Under the pieces are notes generated by a model. The model had not been told where the DNA came from. It saw only the letters and a list, made by a program, of their open reading frames with translations, and made no database searches. A stretch of 4,906 bases of DNA from a virus. Lineage: Duplodnaviria; Heunggongvirae; Uroviricota; Caudoviricetes. Shown in pieces: positions 1 through 4,906 of the stretch (position 1 is the stretch's first letter; the number at the start of each line of letters is the position of its first letter). The translations under genes and the position numbers were made by a program. The DNA lies in the IMG/VR virus record IMGVR_UViG_2657245112_000028. The stretch is one strand, 5' to 3'.

Positions 1-38
1 TATAAATTCTGATTAGCCAGGTAACACAGTGTTATGAC

Positions 39-66
39 AGCCCGCCGGTTCAGGCGGGCTTTTTTG
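39..66 (+). terminator. Rho-independent terminator ending the upstream gene
   Basis: GC-rich inverted repeat agcccgcc (39-46) / ggcgggct (53-60) with a 6-nt loop, immediately followed by a T-run (61-65). Sits just upstream of the stf ribosome-binding site. Confidence 0.75.
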
Positions 67-76
67 TGGGGTGAAT

Positions 77-3037
77 ATGGCAGTAAAGATTTCAGGTGTA
101 CTGAAAGACGGCACAGGAAAACCGGTACAGAACTGCACAATCCAGCTGAAAGCAAAACGTAACAGTACCACGGTGGTGGTGAACACGCTGGCCTCAGAAA
201 ATCCGGATGAAGCCGGGCGTTACAGCATGGACGTTGAGTACGGTCAGTACAGCGTTATTCTGTTGGTGGAAGGCTTCCCGCCGTCACATGCCAGGACCAT
301 CACCGTGTATGAAGATTCCCGACCCGGTACGCTGAATGATTTTCTCGGTGCCATGACGGAGGATGATGCCCGTCCTGAGGCACTGCGCCGTTTTGAACTG
401 ATGGTGGAAGAGGTGGCGCGTAACGCGTCCGCGGTGGCACAGAACACGGCAGCCGCGAAGAAGTCAGCCAGCGATGCCAGCACATCAGCCCGTGAGGCGG
501 CAACCCATGCGACTGATGCTGCAGGCTCAGCACGCGCAGCCAGCACGTCAGCCGGACAGGCCGCGTCGTCGGCTCAGTCAGCGTCTTCCAGCGCAGGAAC
601 GGCATCAACAAAGGCCACTGAAGCATCAAAAAGTGCTGCCGCTGCAGAGTCCTCAAAAAGCGCGGCGGCCACCAGTGCCGCTGCGGCGAAAACGTCAGAA
701 ACGAATGCGGCAGCGTCACAACAATCAGCAGCCACTTCTGCATCCACCGCGACCACGAAAGCGTCAGAAGCTGCCACCTCAGCCCGGGATGCGTCGGCTT
801 CAAAAGAAGCGGCAAAATCATCAGAAACGAACGCATCATCAAGCGCCAGTAGTGCCGCTTCCTCGGCAACGGCGGCAGGAAATTCCGCGAAGGCGGCAAA
901 AACGTCCGAGACGAACGCTAAGTCTTCTGAGACGGCAGCGGGACAGAGCGCCTCAGCTGCGGCAGGCTCAAAAACAGCGGCTGCGTCGTCTGCCAGTGCC
1001 GCGTCAACAAGTGCCGGGCAGGCCTCAGCCAGTGCCACCGCCGCCGGAAAATCGGCAGAAAGCGCCGCATCATCCGCTTCAACAGCCACAACGAAGGCTG
1101 GCGAAGCCACTGAACAGGCCAGCGCAGCAGCGAGTTCTGCTTCCGCAGCGAAGACATCCGAAACGAACGCGAAAGCGTCGGAAACCAGCGCAGAATCCTC
1201 AAAAACGGCTGCCGCATCGTCAGCCAGTTCGGCGGCGTCATCGGCATCATCGGCGTCTGCTTCAAAAGATGAGGCGACCAGACAGGCGTCAGCAGCGAAG
1301 AGCAGCGCCACGACGGCATCCACGAAGGCGACAGAGGCAGCTGGCAGTGCGACGGCGGCAGCTCAGAGCAAAAGTACGGCGGAATCCGCGGCAACGCGCG
1401 CCGAGACAGCAGCTAAACGGGCAGAGGATATTGCATCCGCCGTGGCGCTTGAGGATGCGAGCACGACGAAAAAGGGGATAGTACAGCTCAGCAGTGCGAC
1501 TAACAGCACTTCCGAGTCACTGGCGGCAACGCCAAAAGCCGTTAAGGCCGCGTATGACCTGGCTAACGGGAAATACACCGCACAGGATGCAACGACAGCA
1601 CAGAAAGGGATCGTTCAGCTCAGCAGCGCGACCAACAGCACATCTGAAATGCTGGCGGCAACGCCAAAGTCGGTAAAGGCAGCCTATGACCTTGCTAACG
1701 GGAAATATACCGCTCAGGACGCTACGACAGCACAAAAAGGAATTGTCCAGCTCAGTAGTGCAACCAACAGCGCATCTGAAACGCTTGCCGAGACACCGAA
1801 AGCAGTGAAAGCAGCTAATGATAATGCGAATGGTCGGGTACCTTCTGCCCGTAAGGTGAATGGTAAGGCGCTTTCAGCGGATATAACACTGACGCCGAAA
1901 GATATTGGTACGCTTAACTCAACAACAATGTCATTCAGCGGTGGTGCTGGTTGGTTCAAATTAGCAACGGTAACCATGCCACAGGCGAGTTCTGTTGTTT
2001 CAATTACGTTGATTGGTGGCGCGGGATTTAACGTGGGGTCACCTCAACAGGCAGGTATATCTGAACTTGTTTTGCGTGCAGGTAATGGTAATCCGAAGGG
2101 GATTACTGGTGCTTTATGGCAGCGCACATCGACAGGGTTTACAAATTTTGCCTGGGTCAATACATCTGGTGATACTTACGATATTTACGTTGCAATCGGA
2201 AATTATGCGACTGGTGTAAATATTCAATGGGATTATACCAGTAATGCCAGCGTGACGATTCATACGTCACCAGCATATTCTGCTAATAAGCCGGAAGGGT
2301 TAACGGACGGTACAGTTTATTCACTCTATACGCCATCAGAGCAGTTTTATCCGCCTGGCGCACCAATCCCGTGGCCATCAGATACCGTTCCGTCTGGCTA
2401 TGCCCTGATGCAGGGGCAGACTTTTGACAAATCTGCATACCCGAAACTTGCAGCCGCTTATCCGTCAGGCGTGATCCCTGATATGCGTGGCTGGACGATT
2501 AAGGGCAAACCCGCCAGTGGTCGTGCCGTATTGTCTCAGGAACAGGACGGCATTAAATCGCACACCCACAGCGCCAGCGCATCCAGTACGGATTTGGGGA
2601 CGAAAACCACATCGTCGTTTGATTACGGCACTAAATCCACGAATAACACCGGGGCTCATACGCACAGTCTGAGCGGCTCTACAAGCTCGGCCGGAGCACA
2701 CTCGCACGTTGATGGTCGCAGGTTTAATACAAGCACTTTTAAAGACACCTATCAGTATGGTTCTACAGCTGTCGGAAGTAACTCATACCAGGTACAAGGG
2801 GCGGTTGGTCTGGGCATTGGCACGATGGCGAATACGAACTCTGCTGGCGCGCATACCCACTCACTGTCCGGCACTGCTGCAAGCGCAGGTGCACACGCAC
2901 ATACTGTCGGTATTGGTGCTCATACGCACTCCGTTGCGATTGGCTCACATGGACACACCATCACCGTTAACGCTGCTGGTAACGCGGAAAACACCGTCAA
3001 AAACATCGCATTTAACTATATTGTGAGGCTTGCATAA
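77..3037 (+). CDS. stf: Side tail fibre protein (lambda Stf family), 986 aa from ATG 77 (ORF track opens at GTG 71)
   Basis: N-terminus [20 protein letters not shown]... matches the lambda/lambdoid Stf N-terminus as I recall it. Purine-rich SD-like gtggggtg lies upstream of ATG 77. Architecture is N-terminal attachment domain, A/S/T-rich shaft, three tandem 44-aa fibre repeats, then a His-x-His-rich C-terminal tip. Stop TAA at 3035-3037 overlaps the tfa start (TAATG). Confidence 0.92.
422..1440 (+). repeat. Low-complexity Ala/Ser/Thr-rich shaft region of stf with recurring K(T/S)SETNA quasi-repeats
   Basis: About 340 codons dominated by A/S/T. The motif (A)KTSETNA(K/A)(S/A)S recurs at about 691-720, 826-850, 898-930 and 1150-1180. 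The GC-rich codon bias produces long spurious ORFs in other frames. Confidence 0.7.
1469..1820 (+). repeat. Three tandem in-frame 132-bp (44-aa) phage tail fibre repeats inside stf
   Basis: [12 protein letters not shown](T/A)SE(S/M/T)LA(A/E)TPK(A/S)[21 protein letters not shown] occurs three times. The K-G codons sit at 1472, 1604 and 1736, giving an exact 132-bp period. The third copy diverges after AVKAA. Resembles the 'phage tail fibre repeat' family (from memory). Confidence 0.85.
2561..2956 (+). other. His-x-His motif cluster (7 motifs) in the stf C-terminal tip, a putative metal-binding needle domain
   Basis: HTH 2561-2569, HTH 2657-2665, HSH 2699-2707, HTH 2852-2860, HAH 2894-2902, HTH 2921-2929, HGH 2948-2956, mostly within G-A-H-T-H-S contexts. 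Confidence 0.6.
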
Positions 3038-3450
3038 TGGCATTCAGAATGAGTGAACAAGCACGGACCATAAAAATTTATAATCTGCTGGCCGGAACTA
3101 ATGAATTTATTGGTGAAGGTGATGCATATATTCCGCCTCATACAGGTCTGCCAGCAAACAGTACCGATATTGCACCACCAGATATTCCTGCTGGCTTTGT
3201 GGCTGTTTTCAACAGTGATGAGGCATCGTGGCATCTCGTTGAAGACCATCGGGGTAAAACGGTTTATGACGTAGCGTCAGGGGACGCGTTATTTATTTCT
3301 GAACTCGGTCCGTTACCGGAAAATGTTACCTGGTTATCGCCGGAAGGGGAGTTTCAGAAGTGGAACGGCACAGCCTGGGTGAAAGATGCAGAAGCAGAAA
3401 AACTGTTCCGGATCCGAGAGGCGGAAGAAATAAAAAACAGCCTGATGTAG
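3037..3450 (+). CDS. tfa: Tail fibre assembly protein Tfa, N-terminal 137 aa, ended by an in-frame amber (TAG) codon
   Basis: [93 protein letters not shown]... is near-identical to lambda-type Tfa as I recall it. The start ATG overlaps the stf stop (translational coupling). TAG at 3448-3450 falls where lambda-type Tfa has CAG (Gln). Confidence 0.85.
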
Positions 3451-3621
3451 GTAGCCAGTGAGCATATTGCGCCACTTCAGGATGCTGTAGATCTGGAAAT
3501 CGCAACGGAGGAAGAAACCTCATTGCTGGAAGCCTGGAAAAAGTATCGGGTGTTGCTGAACCGTGTTGATACATCAACTGCACCTGATATTGAGTGGCCT
3601 ACGAACCCTGTCAGGGAGTAA
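3451..3621 (+). pseudogene. tfa: In-frame 3' remainder of tfa downstream of the amber codon, encoding the conserved Tfa C-terminal domain
   Basis: Same frame as 3037-3450, open for 56 codons to TAA at 3619-3621. Encodes [56 protein letters not shown], the conserved C-terminal region of Tfa proteins. No plausible internal restart codon with an RBS. Confidence 0.7.
3456..3576 (+). repeat. Direct repeat copy A (tfa 3' segment), about 89% identical to 4505-4625
   Basis: Ungapped alignment of 3456-3576 with 4505-4625 (offset 1049 bp) gives about 13 mismatches in 121 bp, with an identical ~40-bp core (caggatgctgtagatctggaaatcgcaacggaggaagaaa). Confidence 0.9.
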
Positions 3622-3635
3622 TCATTGGGATTATG

Positions 3636-3684
3636 CCGCAGCACGTCTTAAGCAAGAACGTGCTGCGGTTGGATGCTATTTTTT
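3636..3684. terminator. Stem-loop between convergent tfa (+) and methyltransferase (-) genes; possible bidirectional terminator
   Basis: Perfect 10-bp inverted repeat ccgcagcacg (3636-3645) / cgtgctgcgg (3659-3668) with a 13-nt loop. On the + strand a T-run (3679-3684) follows after a 10-nt gap. The arms are flanked by A-rich sequence on the minus strand. Confidence 0.45.
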
Positions 3685-4344
3685 CCCTGAAGCGGAAAAC
3701 ATTACTACAGTACCTTGAACCTTGGTTTTAACATTCTCGAAATGCTCTGAGAGTATATGTGTTAAGCCTTCTTCGGAATCTTTTGTGTTTGAAAAGATGC
3801 CTTTCTGATTGTAAATGCGCATCAGTTTTTGACCGAAGCTATTGTGCACAACTCCATCGCCAAGAATTGTGGCTCCGTATAGAGTTCCATCGTCAGTTAA
3901 GGCCTGCGCCGCATTGCGTATTACACAGCTTTTTGTAGATATATTTCCAGGCAGGCAGTGAAGAAGGTAAAACATGGAAATGGAATCAAATTGACCATGT
4001 AACGCCGCGGGATAAGGTTCAAAAACATCATGGCTAATTTTATGTTTAATTTTTGATTCCCCAGCCCTTGTAGATGCCGCGTTCAGGCTAGCTTCGTTCA
4101 AATCCATTAAAGATATCAGACTACTCTCAGGTACGTGAGTAAGGTAAAACCCAGTTCCAACACCAATATCCAGATGGTTGTTACCTAAATGTTCCAGAAA
4201 GTGTGGAAGAAGGTGTTCCTTTGTAGGACATCCCCATGCAAGCCGATTTGATACTCCCAAAACCCACCAGTCATAAAGCTTTAGGGTAAGTGGTGTGTAA
4301 ATTTTAGCCCCATCATCTGTGTTTTTTTTCATTAATTTCACCAT
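3676..4344 (-). CDS. Class I SAM-dependent methyltransferase-like protein (222 aa; possibly 218 aa from the ATG at 4330-4332)
   Basis: Rossmann methyltransferase motifs in canonical order: motif I HLDIGVGTG (aa 57-65); acidic post-I residue in LMDLNE about 17 aa later; motif II-like FDSISMFYLLHCLP; motif III-like LTDDGTLYG. Lies in a visibly AT-rich island, convergent with tfa. A GGTGA SD-like element sits 5 nt upstream of the second ATG (M5). Confidence 0.65.
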   Translation of the reverse strand: MVKLMKKNTDDGAKIYTPLTLKLYDWWVLGVSNRLAWGCPTKEHLLPHFLEHLGNNHLDIGVGTGFYLTHVPESSLISLMDLNEASLNAASTRAGESKIKHKISHDVFEPYPAALHGQFDSISMFYLLHCLPGNISTKSCVIRNAAQALTDDGTLYGATILGDGVVHNSFGQKLMRIYNQKGIFSNTKDSEEGLTHILSEHFENVKTKVQGTVVMFSASGKK

Positions 4345-4400
4345 GTTATAGTTTTATTTGTGAATTAAATCAATTATGGCGATGAATTACAAGGGGTTAA
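4345..4400. promoter_or_regulatory. AT-rich divergent intergenic region, likely holding promoter(s) for the methyltransferase (-) and tfa-like ORF (+); includes the AAGGGG RBS for ORF 4401
   Basis: 56 bp of very AT-rich sequence between divergently oriented ORFs. AAGGGG at 4391-4396 lies 4 nt upstream of ATG 4401. No -35/-10 pair could be assigned with confidence. Confidence 0.3.
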
Positions 4401-4733
4401 ATGCTGCCGCAGCATAGCGATATTGAAATAGCCTGGTATGCTTCGATACAACAGGAGCCGAATGGCTGGAAGACCGTCACCACACAGTTCTACATCCAGG
4501 AATTCAGTGAGTATATTGCGCCACTGCAGGATGCTGTAGATCTGGAAATCGCAACGGAGGAAGAAAGATCGTTGCTGGAGGCATGGAATAAATATCGGGT
4601 ATTGTTGAATCGAGTTGATACATCAGTAGCTCTGGGTATGAAGCTGTTTGTAACTCATGTTACAGTAACAGTCATTACTATCTCGAAGGTGCAAAATGCT
4701 GAGAGATCCCCTCATAATTTCCCCAAAGCGTAA
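4401..4733 (+). CDS. Tfa-like remnant/chimeric ORF (110 aa): 5'-truncated divergent tail fibre assembly gene with an unrelated C-terminal tail
   Basis: Residues 37-75 ([38 protein letters not shown]) repeat the Tfa C-terminal domain seen at 3466-3576. An in-frame TAA lies immediately upstream of the ATG, so the N-terminal part of any ancestral gene is missing. After RVDTS the sequence diverges from the TAPDIEWP ending. Has a good RBS. Confidence 0.45.
4505..4625 (+). repeat. Direct repeat copy B (tfa-like 3' segment), partner of 3456-3576
   Basis: See copy A. Same orientation (direct, not inverted). The two copies bracket the methyltransferase island. Confidence 0.9.
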
Positions 4734-4906
4734 CCATGTGTGAATAAATTTTGAGCTAGTAGGGTTGCAGCCACGAGTAAGTCTTCCCTTGTTATTGTGT
4801 AGCCAGAATGCCGCAAAACTTCCATGCCTAAGCGAACTGTTGAGAGTACGTTTCGATTTCTGACTGTGTTAGCCTGGAAGTGCTTGTCCCAACCTTGTTT
4901 CTGAGC
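4712..4906 (-). CDS. Possible 3' end of an unidentified minus-strand gene running off the window (C-terminal 64 aa: ...[44 protein letters not shown])
   Basis: Minus-strand frame is open for 64 codons from the window edge to a TGA (complement of 4712-4714), while all + frames here are full of stops. No recognisable family, and the start is outside the window. Confidence 0.3.

Follow-up and report, generated by a model that had tools for sequence, protein, structure and literature searches.

Tfa proteins consist of a variable N-terminal domain and a conserved C-terminal domain, according to the passage of PMC9608196 that cites North et al. (2019). Horizontal exchange of tail fibre and tfa genes and the shuffling of motifs among unrelated phages are attributed to Haggard-Ljungquist (1992) and Sandmeier (1992, 1994) in the passage of PMC3945230 that cites them, and the same article deals with relaxed homologous recombination by phage recombinases. 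The gene layout considered here is itself already known. It is annotated in the cryptic prophage DLP12 of E. coli K-12 MG1655 as tfaD-ybcY-tfaX (b0561-b0563), at the same site (argU ... ompT-envY-nfrA), in the same gene order and in the same orientation. The level of identity between the K-12 sequence and positions 3183-4630 of our window is 97.7%; the window is the whole stretch of 4906 nt that was analysed (IMG/VR record IMGVR_UViG_2657245112_000028). Several differences can be noted: in K-12, stf and the 5' end of tfa are lost, ybcY is a pseudogene, and tfaX switches to another tfa allele at approximately 4600 and contains an in-frame TGA, while appY takes the place of the alpha/beta hydrolase gene behind it.

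The phages PhiR26_1, ev243, 2G7b (Nesevirus) and Turner contain the same ybcY-tfaX-hydrolase-ompT-int block with 98-99% identity. However, ev243 and 2G7b have another tail fibre module, with a 119-nt tfa stump that begins at window position 3502, in Turner, tfa and the hairpin are separated by an invertase block, and none of the four phages has the amber codon or the IS10 described below. Phage lambda possesses stf and tfa of the same type, and its tfa 3' end and hairpin are about 83% identical to those of the window; unlike the window, it contains only one tfa 3' end and lacks ybcY. In tail fibre shuffling systems, a conserved tfa segment is likewise common to otherwise different modules, and reassortment takes place inside this segment. 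The locus differs from these systems in that illegitimate joints define the tfaX relic and neither a recombinase nor an invertase takes part in the window. The finding is a real but ordinary one, explained in kind by what is known, and its importance beyond annotation is slight; that tfaX is of chimeric origin may be a new statement, though this is a detail of annotation.

Positions 1-4698 of the window are 100% identical to the chromosomes of E. coli O111:H11 and O103 and 99.9% identical to that of O26:H11 strain 11368. The gene order in the reference genomes is gpJ, lom, stf, tfa, methyltransferase, partial tfa, alpha/beta hydrolase and ompT, followed by the host genes envY, ybcH and nfrA. 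The window represents the right-hand arm of a lambdoid prophage located at the argU/DLP12 site of E. coli. The window itself contains, in this order, stf, tfa, a terminator hairpin, ybcY on the minus strand, tfaX and an IS10 end. The lambda-type side tail fibre gene stf is located at 77-3037 on the plus strand (the longest ORF opens with a GTG at position 71), and the Pfam domains phage_tail_N, Phage_fiber_2 and Collar were found in its product; at the identical locus, RefSeq describes the stf CDS as "prophage tail fiber N-terminal domain-containing protein". The IS10 end (ISVsa5-type, IS4 family; 4699-4906) is inserted just after tfaX, outside the island bracketed by the repeats, and is missing from the related, otherwise identical reference genomes. 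Some IS10 matches reach 14-17 nt into the flank, which was put down to chance similarity of the flanks rather than to a true extension of the element.

The resident tail fibre assembly gene, tfa (3037-3621, plus strand), overlaps the stf stop codon with its start. Both its domain content and its position are those of a tfa gene; its frame, however, is interrupted, and the gene is a pseudogene here. The ORF stops at 3450, with an in-frame TAG at 3448-3450 (codon 138) that is present in the window and in the O111 and O103 strains. RefSeq flags the identical tfa of O111:H11 with "internal stop", while the gene is uninterrupted in O26:H11 11368. Translated through the stop, tfa encodes a Tfa protein of 194 aa, in which residues 1-137 match phrog_105 (E 1e-68) and both halves match Caudo_TAP.

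A first-pass annotation of the window had described direct repeats with about 89% identity and an identical core of about 40 bp, 1049 bp apart and with a methyltransferase gene between them, and this geometry was confirmed in full. Repeat 1 (3456-3576) and repeat 2 (4505-4625), both read on the plus strand, are identical in 108 of 121 positions (89.3%) without gaps, in direct orientation and with an offset of 1049 bp, and the methyltransferase gene ybcY (3676-4344, minus strand) lies between them. The longest exact run that they share is 40 nt (3478-3517 and 4527-4566); by an arithmetic estimate, the chance expectation of such a repeat in 4.9 kb is about 1e-17. An independent repeat search returned the same pair (family D4; 3449-3576 and 4498-4625, 128 nt, 88%), which is the longest dispersed repeat within the window. 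In the ungapped comparison, the similarity breaks off sharply at about 3455/4504 on the left and at 3576/4625 on the right.

The assignment of the repeats to the 3' segments of tfa genes stood as well, with the correction that the first of these genes is not intact here, owing to the amber codon mentioned above. Both repeats are in frame and correspond to the C-terminal portion of the Pfam profile PF02413 (Caudo_TAP), of which positions 79-130 are matched by the translation of 3451-3618 (E 1.2e-26) and positions 75-121 of 131 by the tfaX ORF (E 1e-17). Repeat 1 is the resident tfa segment encoding the conserved C-terminal domain, and repeat 2 is the corresponding segment within the tfaX relic, from a different tfa allele. 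Twelve codons differ between the repeats, and nine of these changes are synonymous, which argues that both sequences diverged while they still belonged to working tfa genes. On the strength of this codon comparison, repeat 2 is a foreign second tfa 3' end, as had been supposed, and neither a local duplicate nor a degenerate form of repeat 1. The second copy of many phages remains colinear past the natural stop codon of tfa and across the terminator hairpin, with 91% identity to window positions 3456-3670; this is expected if a whole tfa 3' end was joined from another phage together with its downstream arm.

The tfaX ORF opens at 4401 (4401-4706/4733) and is a chimera of a foreign 5' part and a tfa 3' part. 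The 5' part (4401-4504, plus strand) corresponds to the first 35 or so codons of a 79-aa prophage gene of the phrog_3893 family, which is unrelated to tfa. The phrog_3893 match covers tfaX residues 3-37, and the N-terminal 36 aa are 53% identical to the N-terminus of an intact 79-aa ORF of the Klebsiella phage Kp4882-3 (E 9e-12). The 125 homologues of the 79-aa protein that were detected come from enterobacterial prophages, in which the gene is located after tail fibre or spike genes and variable cargo (gtr, acyltransferase, reverse transcriptase) and before the S24 peptidase gene and int. From residue 37 onward, the tfaX product matches the Tfa C-terminal domain. The joint between residues 1-36 of the phrog_3893 type and the Tfa part (CCAGGAATTC/AGTGAG, at approximately 4500-4505) is thus a non-homologous gene fusion, and since it is constant in all IMG/VR, phage and genome loci inspected, it arose once, in a single illegitimate event. 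The other edge of repeat 2 in the window, at 4625, is an abrupt non-homologous joint to the hydrolase-ompT cargo block. The beginning of this block, unrelated to tfa, takes up positions 4626-4698 of the plus strand; the tfaX ORF reads through it, and the last 14 or so codons of tfaX are replaced by unrelated sequence.

The tfaX product has no fibre-binding N-terminal domain, and there is no stf upstream of the gene. The state of the frame was compared in 119 distinct loci: approximately two thirds of them keep a frame of 86-89 aa that ends in the natural C-terminus of Tfa. Another 15% or so resemble the window, where the tfa part is cut at 4625 and the frame reads into unrelated sequence. In about 17%, the frame is damaged by stops, frameshifts or a 7-bp deletion, and at least seven kinds of such lesions were counted. 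Variants in the non-tfa N-terminal part are 7 synonymous and 14 non-synonymous, with two stops among them. From this pattern of variation, tfaX reads as a decaying relic. The PHROGs database holds it as family phrog_2341, and RefSeq annotates the tfaX counterpart as an incomplete pseudogene in the reference genomes and lists it as a CDS in K-12. The gene would be better annotated as a chimeric pseudogene, composed of the 5' end of the 79-aa gene and the 3' end of tfa, than as a tail fibre assembly protein.

To describe the distribution of the locus, the hairpin, ybcY and the 5' part of tfaX (window positions 3636-4504) were taken as the core of a cassette, which was scored as present at a coverage of at least 80%. 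The core was found in 3798 of 5426 complete E. coli genomes (approximately 70%) with 95-100% identity, occupying 4957 places in them, up to four per genome. Viable phages have the cassette as well, among them PhiR26_1, ev243, 2G7b and Turner. On its right side, at least eight different 3' ends or downstream blocks occur behind the constant start of repeat 2. They include the window type, a complete tfa end with the hairpin, a second allele that ends in WPEEPDTM and a stop codon, and the K-12 hybrid. The tail ending in WPTSPAE and a stop codon was found with both repeat 2 alleles, which points to homologous exchange within the conserved part of tfa.

On the left side, at least six types of joint were distinguished. 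A full tfa is present in 47 of 121 distinct IMG/VR loci, whereas in the others homology starts at 3502 (26 loci), 3524 (17 loci), 3476 (5 loci) or, at the hairpin, 3630/3636 (22 loci); these loci are mutually related, and their counts are not counts of independent events. The joints inspected are fusions to the end of a membrane protein gene (ev243 type), to a truncated pin invertase gene (the pin'::'tfa fusion of the class at about 3524) or to other unrelated sequence. As judged from the sequences they connect, the left joints are illegitimate, and each class probably represents one event and its descendants. The earlier idea of a mosaic boundary at the conserved tfa 3' end therefore holds for the variety of right-hand ends and the reassortment of alleles behind it, but not for the joints that define the locus, which are non-homologous. 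Overall, the locus is an example of textbook-style lambdoid mosaicism, with the conserved chaperone-domain segment, the terminator hairpin and the cargo slot as recurring borders of modules.

We consider it likely that the repeats are the conserved C-terminal-domain segments of two tfa genes, the resident one and the one that survives in the chimeric relic tfaX, and that they came together in the formation of the cassette as follows. The ancestral lambdoid phage would have had the order tfa, terminator hairpin, ybcY in the usual cargo slot and the 79-aa gene, which would normally precede the S24 peptidase gene and int. One non-homologous join, from about codon 35 of the 79-aa gene to about codon 141 of the tfa of another phage, would have brought in the right arm of that phage, so that a further tfa 3' end came to lie on the right side of ybcY. 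The resulting hairpin-ybcY-tfaX cassette would then have spread through the lambdoid prophages of E. coli. Its right partners would have changed by homologous exchange in the conserved tfa segment, giving new tfa tails and cargo blocks, and its left partners by replacement of tail fibre modules via illegitimate joints, often leaving a tfa stump. In the lineage of the window, repeat 2 would have been cut at 4625 and joined to the hydrolase-ompT block, with a later insertion of IS10 at 4699. In this scenario, the repeats would have no function as repeats. The pre-fusion arrangement, ybcY together with an intact 79-aa gene, was not found in the 3846 E. coli genomes with the cassette or in IMG/VR; nor was it found in 14 loci of species-representative genomes, where the Enterobacter homologues have no tfa or 79-aa gene nearby, or in the neighbourhoods of the 79-aa family, where the cargo is of other kinds. 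The order of events given here is thus a reconstruction.

The first-pass annotation had also supposed that recombination between the repeats could delete the island and make the locus unstable or variable, and that related prophages might contain empty sites with a single fused tfa 3' end. A synthetic junction representing a crossover between repeat 1 and repeat 2, with hydrolase-type downstream sequence, was searched for with a coverage threshold of at least 80%, and it was present in 0 of 5426 complete E. coli genomes; in the best matches, only the intact tfaX side was covered. IMG/VR was scanned with an exact pattern that combines a left edge of the tfa type with a right half of the repeat 2 type, which gave 0 contigs, as against 97 for the control with a left edge of the tfaX type. 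For the deletion or empty-site junction predicted with a "type C" downstream context, no single-piece match with more than 97% identity outranked the intact loci; since the two pieces flanking the intact island were joined in it, this search is not discriminating. No fixed repeat-mediated deletion was observed in genomes of which 3798 have the cassette. Deletions that remove ybcY do exist; they are five unrelated illegitimate events, and their end points are other than the repeats. In locus L103, stf is fused to 4447; in L152, 1907 is fused to 4190; L150 has a joint at 4421; phage Ayreon has an internal deletion; and in an O2:H6 strain, 4430 is joined to the ompT region, an arrangement also described for uropathogenic strains (bioRxiv 10.1101/594564). 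Evidently, a repeat of 121 bp with 89% identity, of which 40 bp form an identical core, does not recombine efficiently enough for deletion variants to be left among about 5400 genomes.

A comparison of the similarity between the two repeats runs counter to these results. Repeat 2 is at least 94% identical to repeat 1 in 0 of 50 loci with a full repeat 1, as against 24 of the 64 loci in which repeat 1 is truncated or absent (Fisher's test, 1.6e-7); the 114 distinct loci are phylogenetically linked and not independent, and therefore this test is only suggestive. The contrast would fit a purging of near-identical repeat pairs. Phage Red recombination is reported to act on DNA with 12% divergence, at a rate about 100-fold lower, and lambda is known to exchange stf-tfa DNA with the Rac and Qin prophages (PMC3945230). 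Thus, the locus exhibits no sign of instability among genomes, while a rare deletion, at low frequency within a culture, is possible.

These observations bear on the reading initially proposed, in which ybcY and the second 3' end arrived together by a homologous crossover at the conserved end of tfa, and in which the island is apt to be deleted through its repeats and hence variable in populations. It accords with the foreign origin of repeat 2, with the reassortment of repeat 2 alleles and tails, including the K-12-type hybrid that switches allele at about 4600, with the tolerance of Red for 12% divergence and the exchanges of lambda with Rac and Qin, and with the contrast in repeat similarity. 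Nevertheless, we regard it as rather unlikely, because both edges of repeat 2 in the window are non-homologous joints: the left one fuses an unrelated 79-aa gene and is constant in all loci, and the right one, at 4625, is likewise non-homologous. The left breakpoints at 3476, 3502 and 3524 are illegitimate as well. Moreover, neither the deletion junction nor the hybrid could be detected, the cassette persists in 70% of genomes at 95-100% identity, and all of the observed ybcY deletions have other end points. It can also be imagined that the two tfa 3' segments serve as portable homology arms, so that a single crossover of either arm with the tfa of any co-infecting lambdoid phage would transfer ybcY to a new left or right genome arm, and arm pairs that are too similar would be purged by deletion. 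Such arms could explain the presence of ybcY in 70% of E. coli genomes, and purging would account for the lack of loci that combine a full repeat 1 with a repeat 2 of at least 94% identity to it. In a weaker variant of this reading, the 89-aa TfaX chimera would have a function, for example in interfering with the fibre assembly of other phages; we consider this reading distinctly unlikely.

If tfaX were a functional short Tfa-like paralogue, the repeat would reflect constraint at the protein level on both genes. The open frame in approximately two thirds of distinct loci, the existence of phrog_2341 and the CDS in the K-12 RefSeq record agree with this, but we find it quite improbable in view of the missing fibre-binding domain, the excess of non-synonymous variants with stops among them, the independent stops, frameshifts and 7-bp deletion, the replacement of the last 14 codons in the window and the RefSeq label of incomplete pseudogene. 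A tandem-type local duplication of the resident tfa 3' end, with subsequent divergence and insertion of ybcY between the copies, could account for the direct orientation and for the duplicated unit that in some phages reaches through the terminator hairpin. It is very improbable, given that the divergence is mainly synonymous (9 of 12 codons), which is unexpected for a dead duplicate, that tfaX itself evolves nearly neutrally, and that a fragment of a different gene lies to the left of repeat 2. The invertase block between tfa and the cassette in phage Turner and the pin'::'tfa class of joints at about 3524 call to mind a remnant of an invertible tail fibre switch with alternative tfa genes, of the Mu G, P1 C or e14 P type. 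The repeats are direct, however, the window contains neither an invertase ORF nor a second stf 3' end, and the sequence to the left of repeat 2 is not of tail fibre origin; a switch is thus extremely improbable. Cargo borne by a transposon or insertion sequence was considered too, but the repeats are 121 nt of coding sequence with 89% identity, and no transposase gene lies between them. The transposon, invertible-segment and local-duplication readings were rejected on these grounds.

The G+C-rich hairpin with a run of T at 3635-3669 (plus strand; fold of -28.6 kcal/mol, z = -4.2) is assigned as the tfa terminator and forms the left edge of the conserved cassette. A simple terminator scan does not detect it. 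Beyond it lies ybcY, which encodes a class I SAM-dependent methyltransferase of 222 aa (Pfam; phrog_2132). The GC content of ybcY is 37-43%, compared with 48-50% for the 3' part of tfa. An extra gene on the minus strand, deviant in GC content and missing from lambda, ybcY resembles the morons in the sense of Hendrix and colleagues, with its opposite strand, lower GC content and position after the terminator of the late operon. No internal stop was found in ybcY in any of 120 distinct loci, and its variants are 27 synonymous and 26 non-synonymous; on these data, we read it as a selected cargo gene that is intact and under purifying selection in most E. coli prophages, unlike the pseudogene copy of K-12. 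A promoter-like site, TTAACC-16-CATAAT, is located upstream of ybcY (4373-4400, minus strand) in a consensus scan, in which such sites are not enriched over shuffled sequences, and a minus-strand terminator for ybcY was not found in the window. The interpretation of YbcY as a DNA methyltransferase or a defence protein is unsupported: all NCBIfam matches are below the cut-off, and the sole PADLOC match is negligible. YbcY is weakly similar to small-molecule O-methyltransferases, e.g., UbiG and juvenile-hormone acid methyltransferase (E ~1e-3). Outside the phage context, ybcY homologues with 61-67% identity are present in Enterobacter chromosomes and Klebsiella plasmids.

A second, degraded copy of the int'–'tfa–hairpin–ybcY arrangement is located at positions 11560–12687 of the compared locus L091, where it directly follows the first prophage's attR/argU fragment; such a second copy was also found in loci L098 and L104. 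The sequences of these three loci indicate tandem prophages at argU, with the cassette present in both. In an O2:H6 strain (locus L200), the same int'–'tfa–ybcY–ompT arrangement is the sole remnant.

The slot directly upstream of the 79-aa gene and the S24 peptidase gene contains cargo that varies among prophages, including gtrABC, acyltransferase, and reverse-transcriptase genes (contexts L192–L199), and appears to be a general hot spot for cargo. The 79-aa protein itself is misnamed "DNA polymerase V" in the sources.

Codon 138 of the resident tfa is an in-frame TAG (3448–3450), which truncates the protein immediately ahead of the conserved C-terminal domain. This stop codon is common to the O111:H11 and O103 strains and is absent in O26:H11 11368; therefore, the side-fibre chaperone of the prophage is probably dead in the lineage carrying it. 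In the stf gene, three tandem 132-nt units (1452–1847) match the Pfam Phage_fiber_2 repeat, the levels of identity to the first unit being 79% and 61%. Numerous shorter, alanine/serine-rich repeats are located at 550–1340 of the window.

The end part of an IS10/ISVsa5 copy (4699–4906), inserted 73 nt 3' of repeat 2, is missing at the same place in otherwise identical genomes; O111:H11 genomes contain about 40 copies of this element. In one IMG/VR contig (L089:1–250), the end of an IS66-family element is exactly at the joint between repeat 2 and the hydrolase block (4624/4625 of the window), which may be either a coincidence or a hint of an IS-mediated origin of the joint.

The ORF at 3594–3731, annotated in RefSeq as a 45-aa "hypothetical protein", covers the terminator hairpin as well as the 3' end of ybcY and is probably spurious. 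E. coli lambdoid sequence, 97–100% identical, was also found in records labelled Bacillus and Planococcaceae (contigs L203 and L209), B. thuringiensis plasmid (HM037272.1), and Campylobacter phage (MW057783.1), most likely as a result of assembly or sample contamination.
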